Made by a program: the position numbers and the translations under genes. From NCBI GenBank assembly GCA_001787405.1, contig MFWV01000009.1:26278-90277 (forward strand): a stretch of DNA of 64,000 nt, in the 5' to 3' direction. Source of the DNA: Candidatus Pacebacteria bacterium RIFOXYA1_FULL_38_18. Lineage in GTDB: Bacteria > Patescibacteriota > Microgenomatia > UBA1400 > PJMF01. The notes beneath the pieces are model-generated. The model was not told where the DNA came from and searched no databases. It saw nothing but the letters and a program-made list of their open reading frames with translations. Below, piece by piece: positions 5,151 to 46,584 of the stretch (its first letter is position 1; every line of letters begins with the position of its first letter).

Positions 5151-6835
5151 GGCATTTTTTCAAAATAAATAGCTGCATACTCTGGTCGGTAATCTGCTGT
5201 ATAAAAAATTTTATACCAATTTGGCTGACGAGAGGCAATGGTTTCCAGTTGCCAATCAATAAAATCTTTTCTAGCAATCAAAACTGTTTTTTCAGACAAA
5301 GTAGGTAGTTTTCCCCAATCGAACCAACGAAAACGAATATTATCAATATGGGTGGGCATGTATTGATCAAACTCAATTTTGCTAAAATCCTCAACTGGCA
5401 ATTCATAGGCCATTAGCCACAAATAAAATCTGCTATCGAAAGGCTCGATCCACACTACATCCATTTCTTGTTTTTGTTGCCAAGCTTCATGCGCCAAATC
5501 AGCAAAACCAGTCTGCCACTCACTAGCCGATAGACTGGGATAGACGGAGAAATAAAAAGTAGTGAAGTCCCAAAATGAAAATGCCACTATTGATAGTAAA
5601 CTAAGCCCGAAAGCTAGTTTGAGCCAGCTTGGTTCAACTGCTTGCTTGATTTTCTGCCAACCATAGAAACATCCCCAACCAATCACCACAGTCAGTGGAA
5701 CTAGAGCATTGAGAGAGCGCAAGGCATGAGGGGTGGTTTCTGGTACTGAAGCTGGCAGTAGAGCTGTCAGCCACCACAAGAGCAATAAGACTCCCACTCG
5801 CCAGTGTTTAGTAAACAAAACAAACCAACCATAGATAAAGGGCAAAATAAAAATCGTCAAAAACAAACCATGCCTACCAGTACCATGACGAAGATTGGGA
5901 TCGCCAGTAAAAAAGAGAAAGTCGCTAGAAAGATTGTCTGCATAATTTTTGGCCAGTTCACGAATCAATAAAACTTTGGGATGATAAATGACTTTATCAA
6001 ATAAGGTATTACCGGCTGATAATTTATATTGATTGGAGACTACTGGCCAATCAGCCATGTTCAAAACAGAAGTGGCGCTGAGCCGAAACTGATTGCTGAT
6101 TTTATAAAATGGTGAGCGATACATGGGCCAAAGACTGAGGGTAAAAATCAAGAGCGGTAAAATTAAATTCAAACCAAGCCAGCGCCATAAATTCTGGCCT
6201 TTTCGTTGGGGACCGGCAAATAAACAAATGGTTGCTACAAAAACTACCGGCCAAACAAAACGAATCGAAAAATAAGTATAAGTAGCCAAACCACCCAATA
6301 AAGCTGCGGCCAAGCCCCAAACCCAGTGTTTTTTAGTTTTGAAAGCCAACCAAATACTAGTTGCCATCAGCAATTGACCCACGTGTCCTTCAAAGCCAGT
6401 TCTGGAAAAAAGGATGCTCCAGGGAGTGAGAGCGATAATGAATGCTGTCCACAGAAAAATTGATTGTTGATGCTGTTTTTTTATAGAACCTACCAGCTGA
6501 CTAGCCAAAGCTCCTCCAATGAAAATAGTTGCCATACCAGCCAAGGCGCTGGGTAGCCTCAAAGCCCAATTACTAGCTCCCCACAGTTTAACACTGATAG
6601 AAGCCAGCCAAATATAAACCGGAAGCTTGTAATCACCATAAGACGGGAAAATAGCCGATAGCCAAGCATTACCATGCATGTCCTGACCAGTGGCAGCAAT
6701 GGCTCGCGCATCTACCAAAATCGCTGCTTCATCCCAGTAAAGAGAGACTGGCACCTCTCCCAAACGATAAAAACGCACCGTCAAGCCAATCAAGAAAATA
6801 AAACTCAAAATTAAAGCAAAAAGCCATTTGGACAT
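5147..6835 (-). CDS. GT-C family membrane glycosyltransferase (ArnT/PMT-like)
   Basis: RFYRLGEVPVSLYWDEAAILVDARAIAATGQDMHGNAW; polytopic. Confidence 0.85.
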   Translation of the reverse strand: MSKWLFALILSFIFLIGLTVRFYRLGEVPVSLYWDEAAILVDARAIAATGQDMHGNAWLSAIFPSYGDYKLPVYIWLASISVKLWGASNWALRLPSALAGMATIFIGGALASQLVGSIKKQHQQSIFLWTAFIIALTPWSILFSRTGFEGHVGQLLMATSIWLAFKTKKHWVWGLAAALLGGLATYTYFSIRFVWPVVFVATICLFAGPQRKGQNLWRWLGLNLILPLLIFTLSLWPMYRSPFYKISNQFRLSATSVLNMADWPVVSNQYKLSAGNTLFDKVIYHPKVLLIRELAKNYADNLSSDFLFFTGDPNLRHGTGRHGLFLTIFILPFIYGWFVLFTKHWRVGVLLLLWWLTALLPASVPETTPHALRSLNALVPLTVVIGWGCFYGWQKIKQAVEPSWLKLAFGLSLLSIVAFSFWDFTTFYFSVYPSLSASEWQTGFADLAHEAWQQKQEMDVVWIEPFDSRFYLWLMAYELPVEDFSKIEFDQYMPTHIDNIRFRWFDWGKLPTLSEKTVLIARKDFIDWQLETIASRQPNWYKIFYTADYRPEYAAIYFEKMP

Positions 6836-6859
6836 GTATTTATGGTAACAGAGTTTAAC

Positions 6860-8614
6860 TTACATTTCCTCTGGTGTCTGAATACCCAGTAAAGCCAGTC
6901 CTTCACTCAAAACTAACCTGGTTGCTTGAGTCAAACTCAAACGAACTTGTTGCTGATCCTGAGTTCGGGCGGTTAAAATAGGATTTTGATTGTAAAAAGT
7001 ATTGAATCTTTGTGCCAATTCAAATAGAAATGAGGCTAAATGATGGGGCGTAAATTCTTCAGCAGCTTTTGTCACTACTTCTGCCAAACGATTCAGATAT
7101 TTGATGAGCGCAAGCTCTGTTTGGTCAAAATCATAATTGGCAGGGATTGATAACTGCTGATGCTCTCTTTTATTTAAAACACTCTGGGCTCTTACTGCTG
7201 CATATTGCACATAAGGGCCGGAATTGCCCTTCATACTGAGTATTTCATCCCAGTCAAAAGAGATATCTCTGGCGGCCTCACTTTTTAGATCGTTCCATTT
7301 GAGGGCACCTATCGCTATTTGTTCCACGCTAGCTTGATTGTCTGAGGACAGTGAGGCCGCCCTCTGTTCAGCCTCATCAATCACATCTTGCAACCAAATT
7401 ACATCTCCTTTTCTAGTCGACATTTTTCTAGTCTTGAAACGATATAGGCCGTGTTTTACATGCACTCTTTGCTTGGGTTTGTACCAACCCAGCATTTGCT
7501 CTATTTTATAAAGCTGTTTGAAATATAAACTTTGCTCAGCACCAACCTCATTGATCACCAAATCAGGCTTGAATTCTTTCAATCTGAAATAATCCGTAGC
7601 CAAATCTCTAGTGGAATATAAAGTAGTGCCATCCTTTTTTAAAATCATCAAAGAGGGGAGTGCTTTATCTTCAAAAAAGACTAGTTTTGCTCCATCTTCT
7701 CCTTCACCATAATGACCTCCATTTTTCTCAGATTCATCTTGGGGAAGTTTCTCTCTCAGGATTTCCAAAACTTGCTCCATGCGCCGTTCAAAAAAAGACT
7801 CTCCATAACCCCGACCATTATTTTCCGTAAAAGTTATCTTCAATTTTGTATAAATTTTGTCAAATTCCTGCCAGGATAAATCCACACACCATTGCCAAAT
7901 TGAGCGAGCATCATCATCACCTTCCTCTAGTTTCTTAAACCAAGCTCGTCCATAATCATTCAGAGTGGAATCTTCTTCTGCTCGCTGATGAAACTTGACA
8001 TACAGTTCCACCAGTTCTTTGATCGGCCTAGAAGATTTGCTAATAGCCTCTCGATCTCCCCAAGTTTTGATCGCATAAATTAATTTTCCAAACTGAGTCC
8101 CCCAATCTCCCAAATGATTGTCTCGCAAAACTTCCCAGCCAAGCACTTCATATAAATTGGCCAGAGCATCACCAATGATCGTTGAACGGAGATGACCCAC
8201 AGTAAATGGTTTGGCGATATTAGGTGAGGAATATTCAACAATCACTCGTTTCCCCTGCCCCGCCGGGGGAATAATGGTTTGTATACTAGAAACTTGATTG
8301 ATTTCATTCAATTGACGCAACCAGTATTGTGAAGAGAGAGTAAAGTTGATAAAGCCAGGACCCGCCACACTCATTTCTTGAATATCAGTTTCTTTTGTCA
8401 AAATAACTTGCAATTTTTCTACCAAAGCAGCAGCCAACTCTTTAGGACTGCTAAATTTATCTGTTTGCTTGATGTATTGCAGAGCAACATTGCTACTCCA
8501 ATCACCGAATTGATCATCAGCTGGATGCTCCAACTTGAGTGCTGAGGGTTGAAGGTTTAGTTCACCAAGAGCTTGCTGGATGGCTTGAGTAATAGAGTTA
8601 ATAATCACTCCCAA
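6860..8614 (-). CDS. argS: Arginine--tRNA ligase
   Basis: Class I aaRS: SSPNIAKPFTVGHLRSTIIGDAL (HIGH-like), the N-terminal Add-1 domain pattern QFGDWSSNVALQ, and a C-terminal anticodon-binding domain ending ...EEM. Confidence 0.9.
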   Translation of the reverse strand: MGVIINSITQAIQQALGELNLQPSALKLEHPADDQFGDWSSNVALQYIKQTDKFSSPKELAAALVEKLQVILTKETDIQEMSVAGPGFINFTLSSQYWLRQLNEINQVSSIQTIIPPAGQGKRVIVEYSSPNIAKPFTVGHLRSTIIGDALANLYEVLGWEVLRDNHLGDWGTQFGKLIYAIKTWGDREAISKSSRPIKELVELYVKFHQRAEEDSTLNDYGRAWFKKLEEGDDDARSIWQWCVDLSWQEFDKIYTKLKITFTENNGRGYGESFFERRMEQVLEILREKLPQDESEKNGGHYGEGEDGAKLVFFEDKALPSLMILKKDGTTLYSTRDLATDYFRLKEFKPDLVINEVGAEQSLYFKQLYKIEQMLGWYKPKQRVHVKHGLYRFKTRKMSTRKGDVIWLQDVIDEAEQRAASLSSDNQASVEQIAIGALKWNDLKSEAARDISFDWDEILSMKGNSGPYVQYAAVRAQSVLNKREHQQLSIPANYDFDQTELALIKYLNRLAEVVTKAAEEFTPHHLASFLFELAQRFNTFYNQNPILTARTQDQQQVRLSLTQATRLVLSEGLALLGIQTPEEM

Positions 8615-8661
8615 AGATTATACTGATTAATCAGCATTTGGAAAAGCCGAATCTCAAGAAC

Positions 8662-10362
8662 TCACTCCACAATTGCCAATTGCCAAACCTCTTTTCCAGC
8701 CAAATCCTCAATTATCTCTGGTTGATCTTTGATTTTGAGTCCAGTGAATTGATCGGGCGAGCCAGCAACAATGGCTGGCAGAGTGGTTATTTCCTGCAAA
8801 CTACCTACAAAATGCAGATTGGCAAACTCCAGAAACTCACCCTGATCCTTTTTGACAGTATTATTTTCTCGTTGTACTAAAACAGGATCAGTGGCTGTAT
8901 AAAACCAATAATACATAGCTGGTCTGCCCTGCTCTCTAGTAATGTAAACTGGCAAATCGGGATATTGATTACGCAAAATCTCTACTCTATCAATCAATTG
9001 TTCGTAACCATATTGCCATTCCGAGGAAAATTGTTGCGGATAAACAAATAATAAATGTCGATAAAAAGCAGCAAAACTAAAGCCATAAAAAAAGACTAGA
9101 CTCAGTGGCAAAATAAATAATTTTTTTTGCCAACACTTATCCTTGAGCCATTTAGCAATCCAAACCCAACTCTGCCAAATACCAAAAACAGCGATCAATA
9201 AAAACACCGGAGCAACCGGTAAAATACGCAAGGCATGGGGTACAGTTTTGGACATGGCAGCCGGCAAAATACCAAAAATCAACCACCCAACCAATAATCG
9301 TCGTTTGATTGGTGGCAATTTTTTCAAAACCCAAACCGCACCAACTAATAAAAATATTATTTCTGAAGGGTAAAAAAGACCAAAATAACCAGTAGAGTGA
9401 CGCGGATTTTCATCACCGGCAATAAATAGAAAAGCTGGATTAAAATGTACCAGAAACTGCTCTATTATTTTTGTACCCTGCAAAACAAAACGATGATAAA
9501 CCACTCTGGAGAAAACCGAGTTATGATGTAGTTCTTTGAGCGTATTACTCTCTTTAATAATCGTTAAATCACTAAATAAACTAGTTTCCGTCAAACGCTG
9601 TTTCAGCACTGGAGTCCCTAAGGCAGAACTGAAAGGTTGCAGTAAAGCAGCAGTCAGAAATAAAGGTAAAACATAACCAAAAAGCCAAACATTTTTGAAT
9701 TTGAGTCTCAAATCCTGACTGACAAACTGCCAGCCAATAATCAGGCCCAATACCGGAGCCAAAACTCTAGTACTGTGATAGGTATACAGAGCGGCAAATA
9801 ATAATAAAATGCTCAACATCAACCAAGCAAATCGCCACCGATTTTCTGGTTTGAGCTTAATTGCTTGCCAGCCGGTAATTATGCCCCACAAAATAAAAAA
9901 GCTAGCCAAATTAACTTCCCAACCCGCTCTAGAAAATTGAATAAGCCAAGGCGAAATAGTACTCAAACTTAGAGCAATTAATACTAACCAGCGCCGAGTC
10001 TTGAGTGATAAAATTTCTTGACTAAATTGCCAAACTAGCACTCCCAAACCAGCTACTATCCCCACTCCTGCCAAAATCGATGGCAAGCGAACTGCCAGAG
10101 CGCTCAAACCCCACCATTTGATAAACGGAACTAAAGCATAAAAATAACCACTCGGTTTCCAATCACCAAAAGATTCAAAAGCTACCAACGGCACAGCGCC
10201 ATGATGATCTTTGCCTGTTTCCAAAATAGAATAAGCATCATAACCCAAGGCTACTTCTTCCCAATATAAAGCTGGAGGAGAACTGGTAACTTTGAAAAAT
10301 CTCACCCCAAAAGACACTAACAAAATACTGATTATTGCCCACTGCCAAATCCTTTTTGTCAT
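8662..10362 (-). CDS. GT-C family membrane glycosyltransferase (ArnT/PMT-like)
   Basis: RFFKVTSSPPALYWEEVALGYDAYSILETGKDHHG; polytopic. Confidence 0.85.
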   Translation of the reverse strand: MTKRIWQWAIISILLVSFGVRFFKVTSSPPALYWEEVALGYDAYSILETGKDHHGAVPLVAFESFGDWKPSGYFYALVPFIKWWGLSALAVRLPSILAGVGIVAGLGVLVWQFSQEILSLKTRRWLVLIALSLSTISPWLIQFSRAGWEVNLASFFILWGIITGWQAIKLKPENRWRFAWLMLSILLLFAALYTYHSTRVLAPVLGLIIGWQFVSQDLRLKFKNVWLFGYVLPLFLTAALLQPFSSALGTPVLKQRLTETSLFSDLTIIKESNTLKELHHNSVFSRVVYHRFVLQGTKIIEQFLVHFNPAFLFIAGDENPRHSTGYFGLFYPSEIIFLLVGAVWVLKKLPPIKRRLLVGWLIFGILPAAMSKTVPHALRILPVAPVFLLIAVFGIWQSWVWIAKWLKDKCWQKKLFILPLSLVFFYGFSFAAFYRHLLFVYPQQFSSEWQYGYEQLIDRVEILRNQYPDLPVYITREQGRPAMYYWFYTATDPVLVQRENNTVKKDQGEFLEFANLHFVGSLQEITTLPAIVAGSPDQFTGLKIKDQPEIIEDLAGKEVWQLAIVE

Positions 10363-41581: not shown

Positions 41582-42244
41582 GCAATAACCAAAACCACGA
41601 TGAGTCTGCAACATAAAACTATACTCTCCCAATTTTTGACGCAAGCGACGAATATAAACGTCCACGGTACTGGCATTTGGTTCATAATTTGCTGGCCATA
41701 AAGTTCGAGTGAGCTGATGACGAGAAATAACTGCACCAGAAGCTTGTGCCAAACAATTCAGAACTTCGGTTTCGCGGCGGCGCAGTTGGGTTTTATAATC
41801 CGGGGTTTCTATCACACCCTGATTGGGATAAAAAACCAACTCTCCTATCAGCAAGCGCCGCCCTTCCTGATCAGTCACTCGTTGCATAGCCAAAAGATTG
41901 CGCACTCGCAATCTCAACTCCGCCAAAGAAAAGGGTTTTGCCAAATAATCATCGCCTGCCGTCTCCAAACCTTGGATCCTATCTTTAATCTCACCTTTTT
42001 TGCTCAAAAACAAAATCTTGACTTTGGGTAAAATGTCTTTGGCGTACTCTCCAGCCAATAAAGCATCCTCTTTATTAATCAAGCGATCCATGACGCATAA
42101 ATCAAAATGATGGTTCTCTATCTGCTGATAAAAATCCTGCAGAGTATTGACTGCCCGCACATTAACTTGTTTATTCTCTAAGGCTATTTTTAAAGTTTGA
42201 GCTAAATTTAAATCATCTTCCAAAATTAAAATTTTTTTCATCAC
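41555..42244 (-). CDS. OmpR/PhoB-family response regulator
   Basis: Receiver domain: KILILEDD, phospho-acceptor CVMDRL and conserved K in DDYLAKPF. C-terminal winged helix: ETEVLNCL...VDVYIRRLRQKL. Confidence 0.85.
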   Translation of the reverse strand: MMKKILILEDDLNLAQTLKIALENKQVNVRAVNTLQDFYQQIENHHFDLCVMDRLINKEDALLAGEYAKDILPKVKILFLSKKGEIKDRIQGLETAGDDYLAKPFSLAELRLRVRNLLAMQRVTDQEGRRLLIGELVFYPNQGVIETPDYKTQLRRRETEVLNCLAQASGAVISRHQLTRTLWPANYEPNASTVDVYIRRLRQKLGEYSFMLQTHRGFGYCLTAVRRKT

Positions 42245-42309
42245 AACTCCTCTGGTATACTATTAATCTAGCTAGCTTAACAAACTAAGCTTAAAAAATC
42301 CTTAAAAAA

Positions 42310-42383
42310 TCCCGGGTGGTGAAATGGCATCACTACAGGCTCTGAACTTGTCATTCTAGGTTCGAATCCTAGCCCGGGATCCA
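42310..42383 (+). tRNA. tRNA-Gln (anticodon CTG)
   Basis: Manual cloverleaf: 7-bp acceptor stem (TCCCGGG/CCCGGGA with a U1:A72 pair as in bacterial tRNA-Gln), D-stem GTGA/TCAC, anticodon stem ACAGG/CTTGT with loop CTCTGAA, T-arm CTAGG-TTCGAAT-CCTAG, and an encoded CCA. Confidence 0.85.
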
Positions 42384-42404
42384 CCCAAAACATATCCTAT
42401 AATA

Positions 42405-42433
42405 TTGACATTTGATATATTTTGTGCTAGTAT
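42405..42433 (+). promoter_or_regulatory. Near-consensus sigma70 promoter TTGACA-N17-TAGTAT
   Basis: Read directly, 20 nt downstream of tRNA-Gln. It heads about 400 nt of non-coding, structured sequence before the ATG at 42827. Confidence 0.45.
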
Positions 42434-42826
42434 ATGTAGCATCCTACAAGAGTAATCTTCTAGGATTTTTTATAAGAAAAATATGACTAAAGAGGAGCGA
42501 GGCCTACTTTAAGATAACTTTAAAAACTCCTTTTTTGTTGGTAGAAACCTGGTTGGAAATAAAATCTTTTCTCCTGAGTTTTTCAGGATAGTTTCTAACT
42601 AGATTTCTGCTATTAAGCTGTAGGTTGTTGATAGCAGGTTTTGAGTAAAACAAGGTTAGAAACAGCTTCTAACAAATTGTTTTTCAAGAAAAAAAACCTA
42701 CATCTGCACTTTAATAATTTGCGAAAAACAAAACCCTCCGACCTGAATGGGTAGCTTTTTGGACATTAATCGATAGTGTTCAGCAAGCTATCCATTCGGG
42801 ATAGTAAACCTACAAAGGAGAGAAAA

Positions 42827-43333
42827 ATGTTCAGCAAGAAACCCAAATGGGTAAGAGCCCTTGCATGGTGTATAACCCTGCAAGTAATTTTTGCATGGGC
42901 AATCATCACTCGGGAAATGATCCGAGACCACACCTATTCCGGAAAGGAAGAGGTTGTGGTTAAAATTTACAGAGGTTACAACATCGATATTTATGTTGAA
43001 ACCCCTGTTGCCATTGAGGCAACAAGCCTCGATTTTTTCCTGCTCGAGAGGGGCGGGGAATATCTATATGGCATACCTTATTCTCCTCTAGAATTTGGGG
43101 AGCATAAGTATTTTTCTCTCACTGGAGAAATCTCTAGTGGAGAATGGGAGGTTTCAGGGGATGAAGAAATAAGCCTGAGACTTGTCAGCGAAGAAGAAGA
43201 AAATGAAAAAGGGATAGAGGTAAGAATCTATCCCCGGGAACCAGTAATCTTCTCCATTATCTTCTTCAATGCCCTGTTTTCTCTCGCAGTTTGGGCATTA
43301 ATGATGGCACCTATCTGGATATTTTTTAATTAA
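42827..43333 (+). CDS. Hypothetical two-TM membrane protein with acidic central domain; compositionally atypical
   Basis: The start is chosen at the ATG preceded by AAAGGAGAGAAAA, a strong Shine-Dalgarno; the ORF track start is GTG 42776. It has N- and C-terminal TMs. Local GC content and codon usage (CTC, CGG, GGG, AGG) differ from neighbouring genes. Confidence 0.55.
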   Translation: MFSKKPKWVRALAWCITLQVIFAWAIITREMIRDHTYSGKEEVVVKIYRGYNIDIYVETPVAIEATSLDFFLLERGGEYLYGIPYSPLEFGEHKYFSLTGEISSGEWEVSGDEEISLRLVSEEEENEKGIEVRIYPREPVIFSIIFFNALFSLAVWALMMAPIWIFFN

Positions 43334-43340
43334 GTGCAGA

Positions 43341-43456
43341 AAAAGCCTGAAGTAGAGAAAAAAGATAGAAAAGGAGTGTGTTGCGATAAGCAATACACAC
43401 GTGTGATTACAACACACTTTCCTTTCTATCTTTATCTCGTAAATCTTCAGGCTTTT
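43341..43456. repeat. 116-nt imperfect palindrome (giant hairpin) with perfect CACACGTGTG centre; putative bidirectional terminator or MITE-like element
   Basis: Outer arms AAAAGCCTGAAG / CTTCAGGCTTTT are perfect. Inner arms GATAGAAAAGGAGTGTGTTG / CAACACACTTTCCTTTCTATC are near-perfect. The flanks are T-rich on both strands. Confidence 0.6.
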
Positions 43457-43550
43457 CTTTATTTAAAACCTAAATTGAAAAAATTATTTATAGGCAAAAA
43501 ACCAGTTTTACCATTACACCCTTGTCAGAAAGATATGATAAAGTACTCTC

Positions 43551-44420
43551 ATGCCAGATAAATTCAATGCTACCTGGGTTTCTTATAGCTCTATTAGTGA
43601 TTGGCAAAAATGTCCCAGAGCTTACTTTTTGAAAAACATTTACCGCAATCCTAATACCGGCAATAGAGTTCAGCTGGCCGCCCCTTCCCTCTCTCTGGGT
43701 CAAGCAGTACATGAAGTGATTGAAAGTTTGTCGATTCTACCCGTTGATAAACGTTTTACGGAATCATTGTTAAAAAAATATGAACAAATCTGGAAAAAGG
43801 TTAGTGGAAAAATCGGCGGATTTCTTGATGAGCAAACCGAACTGAACTTTAAACAACGTGGCGAAGTGATGTTGCAAAAAGTGATGAAAAATCCAGGACC
43901 AGTAGGTGAATTAGCTATCAAAATTAAAGAAAACTTACCTCAATACTGGCTTTCTGAAGAAGATGAGATTATTTTATGTGGCAAAGTCGATTGGCTAAAA
44001 TATTCTCCAGAAACAGATAAAGTTGAGATTTTAGATTTCAAAACTAGTACCAAAAAAGAGCGTCCTGACTCACTGCAGTTACCTATTTATTTATTACTCG
44101 TCACCAATACCCAATCAAGAACAGTAACCGGAATGAGTTATTGGTACTTAGGGTTTTCGGATCAACCAGAATCAGTAGATCTTCCAGATTTGAAAGAATC
44201 GCACAACACCATTCTAAAAATTGCAAAAGAAATCAAGCTCGCCCGCAAATTAGAGCGTTTCCGCTGTCCCAATGGAGAGGCAGGTTGTCCTATTTGCAAA
44301 CCCTTTGAAAAAATCGTAACCCAAGAAGCTGAGTTTGTCGGCACCAATCCAATTTATAAACAAGATATTTTTATTCTGCCCGATCTTCAAGAAAAGCAAG
44401 CAGACAGTTATATTCTTTAA
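43551..44420 (+). CDS. Cas4-like PD-(D/E)xK nuclease with 4Fe-4S cluster cysteines (RecB/AddB nuclease-domain family)
   Basis: N-terminal Cys in DWQKCPRAYFLK; motif II/III VDWLKY...VEILDFKTS (DxK-T); QLPIYLLL (QxxxY); C-terminal RCPNGEAGCPICKPF (C-x6-C-x2-C). No CRISPR array or other cas genes are present in the window. Confidence 0.7.
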   Translation: MPDKFNATWVSYSSISDWQKCPRAYFLKNIYRNPNTGNRVQLAAPSLSLGQAVHEVIESLSILPVDKRFTESLLKKYEQIWKKVSGKIGGFLDEQTELNFKQRGEVMLQKVMKNPGPVGELAIKIKENLPQYWLSEEDEIILCGKVDWLKYSPETDKVEILDFKTSTKKERPDSLQLPIYLLLVTNTQSRTVTGMSYWYLGFSDQPESVDLPDLKESHNTILKIAKEIKLARKLERFRCPNGEAGCPICKPFEKIVTQEAEFVGTNPIYKQDIFILPDLQEKQADSYIL

Positions 44421-44422
44421 TT

Positions 44423-45697
44423 ATGTTTAAAAATTTTGATCAAAGATTGGGAATTGTCTTTGCCATTCAGATTACGGAAGTATTGGGTTTTTCTTTAATT
44501 TTGCCGTTTTTGCCATTTTACGCCTTGGAGTACGGCGCCTCTCCTTTTACGGTGGGAATGATTCTGACTGTCTTTTCTTTATTTCAGTTTATTTCATCTC
44601 CTATTATGGGTTCATTGAGTGATGGTTATGGAAGAAGACCACTACTACTACTTTCACAATTTTCTACTTTTATTAGTTTTCTAGTTTTGGGTTTTGCCAA
44701 TAGTTTGTGGCTGATTTTTCTTTCCAGAATTATTGATGGTTTGCTGGGTAGTAATTTTACGATTGCTCAAGCTTATATTAGTGATATTACTTCCAAAAAA
44801 AATCGCAGTAAAGCTTTTGGTCTTTCCAGTGCAGCTTTTGGTTTTGGATTTTTAATTGGTCCGGCAATCGGCGGTTATTTATCTCGTTTTGGTTACTCAG
44901 TACCGGCTTTTCTCGCAGCAGGCATTTCCTTACTCAGCATCTTATTAACTTATTTTTATCTACCAGAAACTATCAAAAACAAAAAGGATCGTCGTAATTT
45001 TTCTTTTTCAGAAATAAAGATTATTGATCTTTCTCGTTTCAAAAAATACTTTAACAAACCTCAGGTTAGTTTTGTTTTATGGCAGTTTTTTCTTTTTTCT
45101 TTGGCTCACATAGTCTGGACAAGTAGTTTTGCGGTTTATGGAAACCTAAAATTTGGTCTTACAGCAGAAACCGTTGGCTTTCTCCTAGCTTACATTGGTT
45201 TATTGAGCGTCATTTTGCGCTCTCTAGTGATCCCCAAGTTAATTGATTATTTCAAGGAGCGCAGTTTAACTATTTTAGGTATGAGCGTTATCATTTTAGG
45301 GTTGCTTTTGGCTCCTTTTTTCCATACTCTCTCCCCATTTTTTATAGTAATCACGCTCTTTGCTTTTGGTACCGGCATTTCTAGACCATTACTGATGGGA
45401 GCTATTTCCCGTTCTGCACCAGATAATGAGCAGGGTGCGGTAATGGGAGTGGCCAATTCTTTGAGTAGCCTGACTCAAATCATCGGACCTGTTTGGGGAG
45501 GACTTTTGCTCTCCCTTCTCTTTCCTGACAGTGTTTTATTGACTGGAGCTGGCATTATGACAATCGGACTAATTTTAGTTTTGAAACAACCTATTGAGAA
45601 GATTCCCAACCCACGTGAGACACTGCCAAAAAAAATGAGGCTAGAGCCAATAAACTTAGAAACAAACTCAAAAAAACAATCAATTTCCAAAAACTAA
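44423..45697 (+). CDS. MFS transporter (drug/H+ antiporter-like)
   Basis: GMILTVFSLFQFISSPIMGSLSDGYGRRPLLLLSQ (MFS motif A G-x-L-x-D-x-x-G-R-R) and 12 TM segments. Confidence 0.85.
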   Translation: MFKNFDQRLGIVFAIQITEVLGFSLILPFLPFYALEYGASPFTVGMILTVFSLFQFISSPIMGSLSDGYGRRPLLLLSQFSTFISFLVLGFANSLWLIFLSRIIDGLLGSNFTIAQAYISDITSKKNRSKAFGLSSAAFGFGFLIGPAIGGYLSRFGYSVPAFLAAGISLLSILLTYFYLPETIKNKKDRRNFSFSEIKIIDLSRFKKYFNKPQVSFVLWQFFLFSLAHIVWTSSFAVYGNLKFGLTAETVGFLLAYIGLLSVILRSLVIPKLIDYFKERSLTILGMSVIILGLLLAPFFHTLSPFFIVITLFAFGTGISRPLLMGAISRSAPDNEQGAVMGVANSLSSLTQIIGPVWGGLLLSLLFPDSVLLTGAGIMTIGLILVLKQPIEKIPNPRETLPKKMRLEPINLETNSKKQSISKN

Positions 45698-45744
45698 ACT
45701 GTGGCGAAACCATGAATTTATCATGCGCTTTTTATTTATTACAG

Positions 45745-46584
45745 TCAAGTAAGCCAAGTTTTTTTAGTTTTTAAAGTAGCAATAGCAAAACGATTTTTTC
45801 CAAATTGATCAAGTTTTACTTTAATCTCAAAATCTGGGCTGATTTGTTCCAAAACGGATTGCGTATGAGTGTCATCTACTTCTAGATAAATTTTACCGGT
45901 TTTTTTTAAATAATGTTTGGCAAGGTGCAGTAATTGAGTGATTAATCTCAATCCAGTCTCTCCACCATCAAGAGCTTTGAGTGGTTCAAAGTCTTTAACC
46001 GATGAATCAAGCTGATTTAAACGAGTTGTTGGAACGTAAGGTAGATTGGCAATGATGTAATCAAAGTTATTTACTCGATCAATTTCTGCCAGCAAATCTG
46101 TTTGCTTGAAACTGAGCTGACCATGATTCAATTGATTGTCAAAAAGATTTTGGAAGTTGAGTTTGGCAACTTCTAGAGCAGAGTGGCTCAGATCCGTTAG
46201 AGTTAACTGAAAAGCCAATTGCTGTTGTTCCAATAAGCTTGCCAAACTCAAACCAATCACGCCACTACCAGTCCCTATCTCAATTAATTGCAAGGGTTCG
46301 AGTTGATGAGATTGTTTGGCTAAATCAGCTTGATTAACTTGGTCAGCGCGATTAGATAAGTCTTGCCAAATCAGTTCTACCAACTCTTCGGTTTCTACTC
46401 TGGGAATCAAGACTGCAGGACTAACAGAGAATTCTTTCCCCAAAAACTCAACCTTACCAGTAATGTATTCCACGGGCATTTCTCCATAACGATCAATTTC
46501 TGTGGGAGAGATACCAGCGCGCAATAAATGATTTTTTTCGTAAGAACTTAAATCTCGACTATTTTGATGTTGATTGATAATCAC
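45745..46584 (-). CDS. HemK/PrmC-family class I SAM-dependent methyltransferase (release-factor glutamine N5-MTase-like)
   Basis: IEIGTGSGVIGLSLA (motif I) and IIANLPYVP (an NPPY-like D/N-P-P-Y variant). Confidence 0.6.
   Translation of the reverse strand: MIINQHQNSRDLSSYEKNHLLRAGISPTEIDRYGEMPVEYITGKVEFLGKEFSVSPAVLIPRVETEELVELIWQDLSNRADQVNQADLAKQSHQLEPLQLIEIGTGSGVIGLSLASLLEQQQLAFQLTLTDLSHSALEVAKLNFQNLFDNQLNHGQLSFKQTDLLAEIDRVNNFDYIIANLPYVPTTRLNQLDSSVKDFEPLKALDGGETGLRLITQLLHLAKHYLKKTGKIYLEVDDTHTQSVLEQISPDFEIKVKLDQFGKNRFAIATLKTKKTWLT

Follow-up and report, generated by a model that had tools for sequence, protein, structure and literature searches.

The Argonaute-associated protein ACE1 is a Cas4-family endonuclease that cleaves single-stranded DNA (ssDNA) and does not accept duplex DNA as a substrate; like AdnA and AddB, it is a 4Fe-4S protein in which ssDNA is threaded into a narrow channel with a buried D-DxK site (PMC12094033). 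Cas4-family genes located outside CRISPR loci were noted in 2017 in numerous genomes from the Candidate Phyla Radiation (CPR), where they are mostly vertically inherited and of unknown function, either in defence or in repair, and the pfam12705 section of the same study describes phage clades and fusions with UvrD or COG1205 helicases and no stand-alone CPR clade (PMC5704561). Here we analyse a nuclease gene of this superfamily found in a 64-kb stretch of DNA (hereinafter, the window) from Candidatus Pacebacteria bacterium RIFOXYA1_FULL_38_18 (contig MFWV01000009.1, positions 26,278 to 90,277). An earlier note on this DNA had described its product as a stand-alone Cas4-like protein paired with a transporter of the major facilitator superfamily (MFS) and had linked both to an acquired cassette and a possible defence or DNA-end-processing module.

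By analogy with the characterized relatives, we consider it reasonably likely that the protein is a housekeeping nuclease that acts on ssDNA ends in repair or recombination and represents an intact, stand-alone member of the RecB/AddB/AdnA/Cas4 branch. The evidence comes from the conservation of its motifs, its predicted fold, its phylogenetic spread and gene neighbourhoods, and an unusual C-terminal tail.

Sequence motifs and predicted fold

Conservation was assessed in two alignments, one of 44 close homologs (A1) and one of 31 homologs with identity down to 23% (A2). The gene and its motifs, all on the forward strand, are located as follows (window coordinates).

43551..44420, +: nuclease gene, an open reading frame (ORF) with an ATG start, 289 aa; stand-alone PD-(D/E)XK (PF12705) predicted iron-sulfur (Fe-S) nuclease
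43611..43613, +: codon of Cys21 (WQKCPRAY), N-terminal ligand of the predicted Fe-S 'iron staple'; invariant in A1 and A2
43710..43724, +: His54...Glu58 (HEVIE) in the first long helix; both invariant in A1, His54 kept in at least 90% of A2
43989..43991, +: Asp147 (motif II, GKVDW); invariant in A1 and A2
44034..44045, +: Asp162-Phe-Lys164-Thr165 (ILDFKTS; motif III, D-x-K catalytic core); Asp162 and Lys164 invariant in A1 and A2
44076..44090, +: Gln176-Leu-Pro-Ile-Tyr180 (QxxxY motif); Gln176, Leu177 and Tyr180 invariant in A1 and A2
44265..44297, +: Cys239-PNGEAG-Cys246-PI-Cys249 (C-x6-C-x2-C), three predicted C-terminal Fe-S ligands; invariant in A1; in A2 Cys249 is invariant and Cys239 and Cys246 are kept in at least 90%

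The GGF motif at residues 89–91 is likewise invariant in A1. By comparison with the RecB nuclease site, where a histidine serves as a ligand, we take His54 to bind metal. Judged from these alignments, the conservation of the nuclease motifs is far beyond chance: the active site and the cluster ligands are invariant or nearly so in both sets and are therefore under selection, and the gene is real, intact and predicted to be catalytically intact. All the motifs that the earlier note had read as Cas4/AddB-nuclease hallmarks of a 289-residue protein are present in the translation and invariant in A1, and the absence of catalytic residues, which it had raised as a possible objection, is not seen, with Asp147, Asp162 and Lys164 unchanged throughout both alignments. 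That the protein might be a degenerate, non-catalytic relic of an AddB- or RecB-type protein finds a basis in the general family relationship; given the invariant catalytic and cluster residues, the uniform length of the homologs (275–295 aa across thousands of sequences) and the confident full-length structural model, this idea is already refuted and deserves practically no credence.

In the Pfam search, the protein matched PDDEXK_1 (PF12705) over its full length (E = 1.8e-20; 74.4 bits against a cut-off of 22), with the alignment spanning residues 10–249 of the protein and positions 2–240 of the 247 in the profile, whereas the match to Cas_Cas4 (PF01930) was weak and confined to the C-terminal half (E = 4.2e-5; 24.1 bits against a cut-off of 22.7). 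No Cas4 model, nor any other meaningful model, was matched in the NCBIfam search, and sequence searches of the PDB, either with the single protein or with a 44-sequence profile, returned chance matches only. The AlphaFold2 model has a mean pLDDT of 91.6 and a pTM of 0.86, the last nine residues (281–289) having a pLDDT of 46. When this model was compared with the PDB by Foldseek, the top match was ACE1 (9IAC, 9IAB; E = 4e-8, TM 0.58–0.62), followed by the nuclease domain of AdnA from the mycobacterial AdnAB (7e-7), by AddB (6e-5) and then by RecE and Dna2; structures of CRISPR Cas4 (8D3L, 4IC1) scored much worse (E ~0.03). Among the PADLOC models, weak matches (2e-8 to 5e-8 overall) were obtained to Aga_Cas4-like_Nuc (E = 4.5e-8) and to the Cas4 models (2e-8). 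In PHROGs the protein matched generic phage 'exonuclease' families (phrog_69 at E = 7e-12), and a Foldseek search of BFVD retrieved phage COG2887/RecB-family exonucleases with E-values down to 2e-11 and TM ~0.6 at 12–17% identity.

Because of this pattern of matches in Pfam, Foldseek, PADLOC, PHROGs and BFVD, the predicted protein is placed on the AddB/AdnA/ACE1 side of the Cas4 superfamily, not in Cas4 proper. Thus, the description 'Cas4-like' holds at the level of the superfamily but not as an assignment to Cas4 itself, as the profile searches favour PF12705 over PF01930 and no NCBIfam Cas4 model is matched. All four cysteines are present and conserved and the fold resembles that of Fe-S-binding relatives; we infer that they bind an Fe-S cluster that ties the N-terminal helix to the C-terminal region.

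Distribution and gene neighbourhoods

A search of 5.8 billion protein clusters (90% identity) with the nuclease gave 5825 matches at E ≤ 1e-3. The best 120 of these share 57–100% identity with it (at most 86% over full length) and are 228–323 aa long, nearly all of them 285–295 aa; their named sources are Pacebacteria, Woesebacteria, Shapirobacteria and 'Patescibacteria group', and their annotations include 'PD-(D/E)XK nuclease family protein', 'RecB family exonuclease', 'DNAse subunit B' and 'Cas4'. An exhaustive HMMER search of 1.84 billion representatives clustered at 50% identity found 308 clusters at E ≤ 1e-3 and 57 at E ≤ 1e-30. Close homologs measure 228–339 aa and the top HMMER representatives no more than 378 aa, so that none is long enough to accommodate a helicase domain. 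By these sequence comparisons, the family is compact and sharply bounded; identity ranges from 55 to 86% and is 55–60% across class-level lineages.

When one genome per GTDB species was scanned with conserved peptides of A1 (A2 was too divergent for such patterns), relatives were found in the genomes of at least 573 species, with record titles that include Pace-, Woese-, Shapiro-, Dojka-, Magasanik-, Beckwith-, Roizman- and Levybacteria. The same peptides found no relative among the 2.9 million viral contigs of IMG/VR. The nuclease is vertically inherited and strongly conserved in Patescibacteria (Microgenomates-type lineages and some Parcubacteria), and the family is restricted to CPR bacteria and previously uncharacterised. 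Dozens of GTDB genomes that carry a Patescibacteria-type gene and synteny (including those of loci L010, L013 and L015) are titled 'uncultured Pseudomonadales' or 'Gammaproteobacteria'; these titles are probably mislabelled.

Gene neighbourhoods were compared at 80 loci, from 76 other species and from four loci collected earlier, one of which is the contig of the window itself; all ORFs within four genes of the nuclease were clustered, and the neighbours in the window were compared with the related loci by tblastn. The window and its two close relatives (L001/L002 and L003/L004) share the gene order GT2, MptA_B, PMT_2, histidine-kinase ATPase, response regulator and tRNA-Gln, then a variable stretch, then the nuclease, a PrmC-like methyltransferase, DsbA, RecJ, the CCA enzyme and SecDF. 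The nuclease is 76% identical to that of L001/L002 and 66% identical to that of L003/L004, and is the best or second-best conserved protein of the shared block (65–76% identity, compared with 56–67% for RecJ, 53–71% for the CCA enzyme and 41–53% for the methyltransferase). The G+C content is 0.36–0.38 across the locus, equal to that of the rest of the window, and hence native.

42310..42383, +: tRNA-Gln(CTG), synteny landmark; kept in L001, L003, L010 and L011

The variable stretch is the 1.17 kb between this tRNA gene and the nuclease (42384–43550), and the nuclease lies on its conserved side. An 'acquired cassette and tRNA integration site' was considered for the nuclease and rejected, since variation is limited to the sequence between tRNA-Gln and the nuclease, each of which is a conserved anchor. 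That sequence is a spot of gene turnover: in the window it holds a single ORF for a membrane protein without a family (42776–43333, 185 aa), and in the relatives one to five unrelated small genes, including an ion channel, a thioredoxin and a single-domain response regulator. A 75-aa ORF (43334–43561) that overlaps the start of the nuclease belongs to no family, is not called on the public contig and is probably spurious.

Beyond the close relatives, none of the neighbour families reaches more than 15 of the 80 loci. The frequent neighbours are FtsE, FtsX, an EnvC/peptidase-like protein, the pseudouridine synthase RsuA, DsbA and a P-type ATPase, and Dus, ribosomal and metabolic genes are also seen. 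In ∼ 44 of 76 loci, the gene that follows the nuclease is encoded on the opposite strand. In L093, a distant member lies among genes for transketolase, FBP aldolase and RNR; in L095, another adjoins Dus and has RecA-RecX and ribosomal genes in its vicinity. L093 also has two PDDEXK_1 genes head to head, at 7241–7924 on the reverse strand (227 aa) and 8001–8831 on the forward strand (276 aa), which may form a two-nuclease pair. The earlier note had named a better match to RecB/AddB together with housekeeping synteny as grounds for abandoning its view, and this is essentially what was found, although the protein is complete and stand-alone, not a fragment.

The gene next to the nuclease in the window encodes a transporter.

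44423..45697, +: MFS (DHA1/Tet(A)-like) transporter gene, 424 aa; MFS_1 at E = 2e-72; adjoins the nuclease and is probably co-transcribed with it here

Its best NCBIfam match is to the Tet(A/B/C) family but reaches only 223 bits, with the cut-off at 475, and the protein is therefore a generic DHA1-like pump. As the earlier note had stated, the two ORFs (43551..44420 and 44423..45697) are separated by a gap of 2 nt (...tat att ctt taa tt atg...). The pairing that it drew from this does not extend to the family. Apart from the window organism, an MFS gene is found directly downstream and in the same direction in only 3 of ∼ 76 other species (L009, L010 and L011, with gaps of 5–12 nt); it is downstream but convergent in L029 and L032, and five more loci have an MFS homolog at other positions, to one or the other side of the nuclease or at a distance of kilobases. 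The short gaps make co-transcription likely in the four organisms, and among these four the MFS protein is as conserved as the nuclease (64–67% identity), which would fit a functional two-gene module. Yet no MFS gene is beside the nuclease in about 70 of the 76 other species, among them the nearest relatives, L001 and L003, with their otherwise identical synteny, the gene lies on the opposite strand in L029 and L032, and no known mechanism joins a cytoplasmic DNA nuclease to a DHA1-type efflux pump. Such a module is largely refuted by synteny and must be regarded as very improbable. Since the nearest relatives do not have the MFS gene and more distant ones keep it, the simplest history suggested by these comparisons is an old adjacency that was lost repeatedly, not a functional pair. 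The MFS gene thus appears to be a lineage-specific neighbour that is co-transcribed with the nuclease at most and has no part in its function.

Searches of the 64 kb for tandem and spaced repeats revealed no CRISPR array. The window is also recorded within a 164-kb metagenomic contig (ENA ERZ27254746 k141_384637) whose precomputed Pfam annotation covers ∼ 2.9–64 kb of the window; this annotation lists glycosyltransferases, ArgRS, TrmD, RecJ, the CCA-adding enzyme, RRF and similar genes, and neither cas genes, cas1 and cas2 included, nor a helicase. The statement of the earlier note that repeats, cas1 and cas2 are missing is thereby borne out. At the 80 loci, no prokaryotic Argonaute (pAgo), cas, restriction-modification or other defence gene is a recurrent neighbour in the four genes to each side, no helicase family is among the annotated recurrent neighbour families, and no conserved neighbour of Argonaute size was seen in the neighbourhoods examined. 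PADLOC gave no match for the 185-aa upstream ORF or the MFS protein, and Pfam and PADLOC scans of the locus proteins gave no match to an integrase.

These data bear on the possibility that the protein is a defence nuclease of the solo-Cas4 or ACE1 kind, which would degrade or process invading DNA together with a partner encoded elsewhere. It is true that ACE1 is the best structural match, that PADLOC models for Aga_Cas4-like_Nuc and Cas4 are hit at the E-values given above, and that uncharacterised roles in defence or repair have been proposed for solo-Cas4 genes in the small genomes of CPR and DPANN organisms (Hudaiberdiev et al., PMC5704561). However, no defence gene recurs near the family, the adjacent genes have no PADLOC match, IMG/VR viral contigs hold no relative, and identities of 55–60% across class-level lineages combined with a stable housekeeping synteny are atypical of defence genes; we accordingly judge a defence role improbable. 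Because of the native G+C content, the conserved synteny, the presence in at least 573 species and the lack of integrase or defence matches, the nuclease does not appear to be an acquired gene or part of a defence cassette, contrary to the link suggested in the earlier note. Of the 'uncharacterised defence or DNA-end-processing module' proposed there, DNA-end processing survives as the most plausible chemistry, and the defence part is not supported.

As to the rest of the window, nearly two-thirds of it (∼ 1–41000) is a cell-envelope glycosylation region with many glycosyltransferases (GT2, GT1, PMT_2 and MptA_B), sugar epimerases, dehydratases, a flippase and LytR_cpsA_psr; ArgRS and TrmD break it up, and several 560–590-aa ORFs in it lack a Pfam family. 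A scan of 42200–45900 for sigma-70 promoters gave 7 sites, not above the expectation from shuffled sequences (8.8 ± 2.8). Terminator-like hairpins were commoner in the same interval than in shuffles (8 versus 3.0 ± 1.5), examples being those at 43013–43033 (+), inside the 185-aa ORF, and at 45495–45516 (+), inside the MFS gene.

The C-terminal tail and the proposed role

The polypeptide continues after its last cysteine with a conserved GEAEFVG...Y.QD.YIL segment, a variable acidic linker and a conserved extreme C-terminus.

44391..44417, +: residues 281–289, disordered acidic tail with a conserved hydrophobic tip (...EKQADSYIL-COOH), a putative docking motif

Ser286 and Leu289 are kept in at least 90% of A1, and all 79 readable species-level orthologs (79/79) end with an acidic residue followed by [S/G]-x-[IVL]-[LIV]-COOH. 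Several of the distant members in A2 end in DLPF. When one protein that is 36% identical to that of the window (P0153) was used as the search seed, it recovered a sister subfamily (B) of at least 2050 proteins with names such as Gottesmanbacteria, Shapirobacteria, WWE3 and Microgenomates. Among its full-length top matches, 116 of 119 have [LI]-P-F at the end, in most cases as [DE]-D-L-P-F, preceded by a low-complexity linker.

196–1077 of locus L092: subfamily B member
249–1121 of locus L094: subfamily B member
6001–6870 of loci L095/L096: subfamily B member

Shapirobacteria appear in the lists of both subfamilies, so that A (that of the window) and B may be paralogs in one genome; no second nuclease copy of subfamily A, B or P0277 type was found near A-type loci.

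In Bacillus subtilis, the tip of the ssDNA-binding protein SSB reads DDDLPF. The equivalent DDDIPF is the tip of the C-terminal tail of bacterial SSB, which recruits many SSB partners, including RecJ (PMC5872125, PMC4846377). The tip of the window protein (...QADSYIL) has the acidic linker and the hydrophobic end but is neither IPF nor LPF. A literature search retrieved no description of nucleases with an SSB-like tail, and an SSB homolog sought for comparison of the tips was not found in 1.1 Mb of CPR loci. The sequences suggest that the architecture of the family, a nuclease core followed by a flexible acidic linker and a hydrophobic tip, resembles a docking device, and the tail probably docks the nuclease onto a partner protein. 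It could also be viewed as a short linear motif of either docking or degron type.

One might go further and regard the family as a new, 'hub-docked' type of nuclease, in which a mimic of the SSB tail, or the variant tip E-[S/G]-x-I-L in the subfamily of the window, would plug the enzyme into the network of SSB partners (helicases, RecJ, RecO and others), forming a split end-resection machine that is assembled in trans and replaces AddAB/RecBCD in ultra-small genomes. We offer this as a tentative proposal that is more likely wrong than right. If the tail does recruit the nuclease to the SSB network, it would show genome-reduced bacteria building DNA-end processing from separate minimal parts.

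A β-clamp-binding function for the tail was considered and rejected as unlikely because these lineages appear to use the standard clamp motif QLGLF: the canonical form is carried by an exonuclease encoded nearby in related loci and differs from the nuclease tips. The exonuclease in question, a 3'–5' enzyme of ∼ 200 aa that belongs to the RNase_H superfamily and resembles PolB-exo, is convergent to the nuclease in six loci (L022, L027, L035, L038, L056 and L077); the L027 protein, whose gene is the next one downstream of the nuclease, has the C-terminus ...PQLGLF-COOH, a canonical β-clamp-binding motif. In a Magasanikbacteria locus (L051, 8702–9226, +), an IrrE/Peptidase_M78-type metalloprotease encoded 1.8 kb downstream of the nuclease ends in ...KEEIPF-COOH, an SSB-like tip on a protein of the DNA-damage-response type.

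We return to the reading of the protein as a housekeeping nuclease for ssDNA ends. A free ssDNA end would be threaded into a narrow channel, as in AdnA's and AddB's nuclease domains and in ACE1, and the strand would be cut or degraded at a metal site formed by His54, Asp147, Asp162 and Lys164. The outcome would be end resection or the processing of flaps or gaps in recombinational repair, with unwinding supplied in trans by a separately encoded helicase and the acidic tail with its hydrophobic tip docking the enzyme onto a partner protein. Action on free ssDNA ends would follow the behaviour of AdnA and AddB, which work on the 5'-terminated strand, and of ACE1, which works on ssDNA; the role itself would lie in recombinational repair or in general DNA-end processing in reduced genomes.

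Several points weigh against this reading. No helicase or recombination gene is consistently linked to the nuclease: the Pacebacteria block is the only one with RecJ at a distance of 3 kb, and a single subfamily B locus has RecA-RecX, 3.5 kb off. The closest solved structure, that of ACE1, belongs to a defence accessory protein, and likeness of fold alone cannot separate repair from defence. The evidence on gene content was gathered at the level of loci.

The conservation of the family throughout reduced-genome CPR lineages, and the ssDNA-end chemistry of its fold class, would also fit, by inference, a nuclease for nucleotide salvage or DNA uptake that turns imported ssDNA into nucleotides in organisms without de novo synthesis. 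Competence genes (ComEC, DprA and ComF) are, however, not among the recurrent neighbours, and the enzyme as predicted, of the channel type with an Fe-S cluster and a docking tail, would be more complex than bulk degradation requires, which makes this explanation rather unlikely.

Comparison with known systems

Among the described proteins, ACE1 resembles the window nuclease in being a stand-alone protein of ∼ 270–290 aa with a D-DxK site and one N-terminal and three C-terminal cysteines, and is its best Foldseek match (PMC12094033). Sequence identity between the two is nevertheless only 13–16%. ACE1 is confined to cyanobacteria and is always found in an operon, and as a heterodimer, with a long-A pAgo, whereas the family studied here has no pAgo near it at any of the 80 loci and is thus not an APACE1 system; nor has a conserved C-terminal tip been reported for ACE1.

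With AdnA of the mycobacterial AdnAB and AddB of the Bacillus AddAB, the window nuclease shares PF12705, the cysteines of the predicted Fe-S 'iron staple' and the His/Asp/Asp-x-Lys/QxxxY site. In those systems, however, the nuclease makes up the C-terminal domain of a helicase-like subunit with ∼ 1000–1150 residues that is encoded beside its partner subunit, whereas here it is a free protein of 289 aa with no helicase gene nearby. CRISPR Cas4 (PF01930/COG1468; SSO0001 in 4IC1 and the type I-C Cas4 in 8D3L) has in common with it the superfamily, the four cysteines and the DxK core, but the window nuclease matches Cas4 poorly in both profile and structure and has no cas1, cas2 or array. The set of solo-Cas4 genes from CPR genomes compiled by Hudaiberdiev et al. 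in 2017 was defined by COG1468-type profiles (PMC5704561). Phage exonucleases annotated as COG2887 'RecB family exonuclease' or Cas4-family (from actinophages and others) are similar in size and fold, with 12–17% identity; by contrast, the family of the window has no close relative in IMG/VR and occurs in a cellular housekeeping context.

The window nuclease is therefore best described as an unremarkable member of a large family whose existing annotation reads 'PD-(D/E)XK nuclease family protein', and not as part of a new defence system. What makes it noteworthy in comparison with the systems above is that this uncharacterised family is confined to the CPR, is among the best-conserved genes of its block and carries a docking-type tip that, in the sister clade, is SSB-like.

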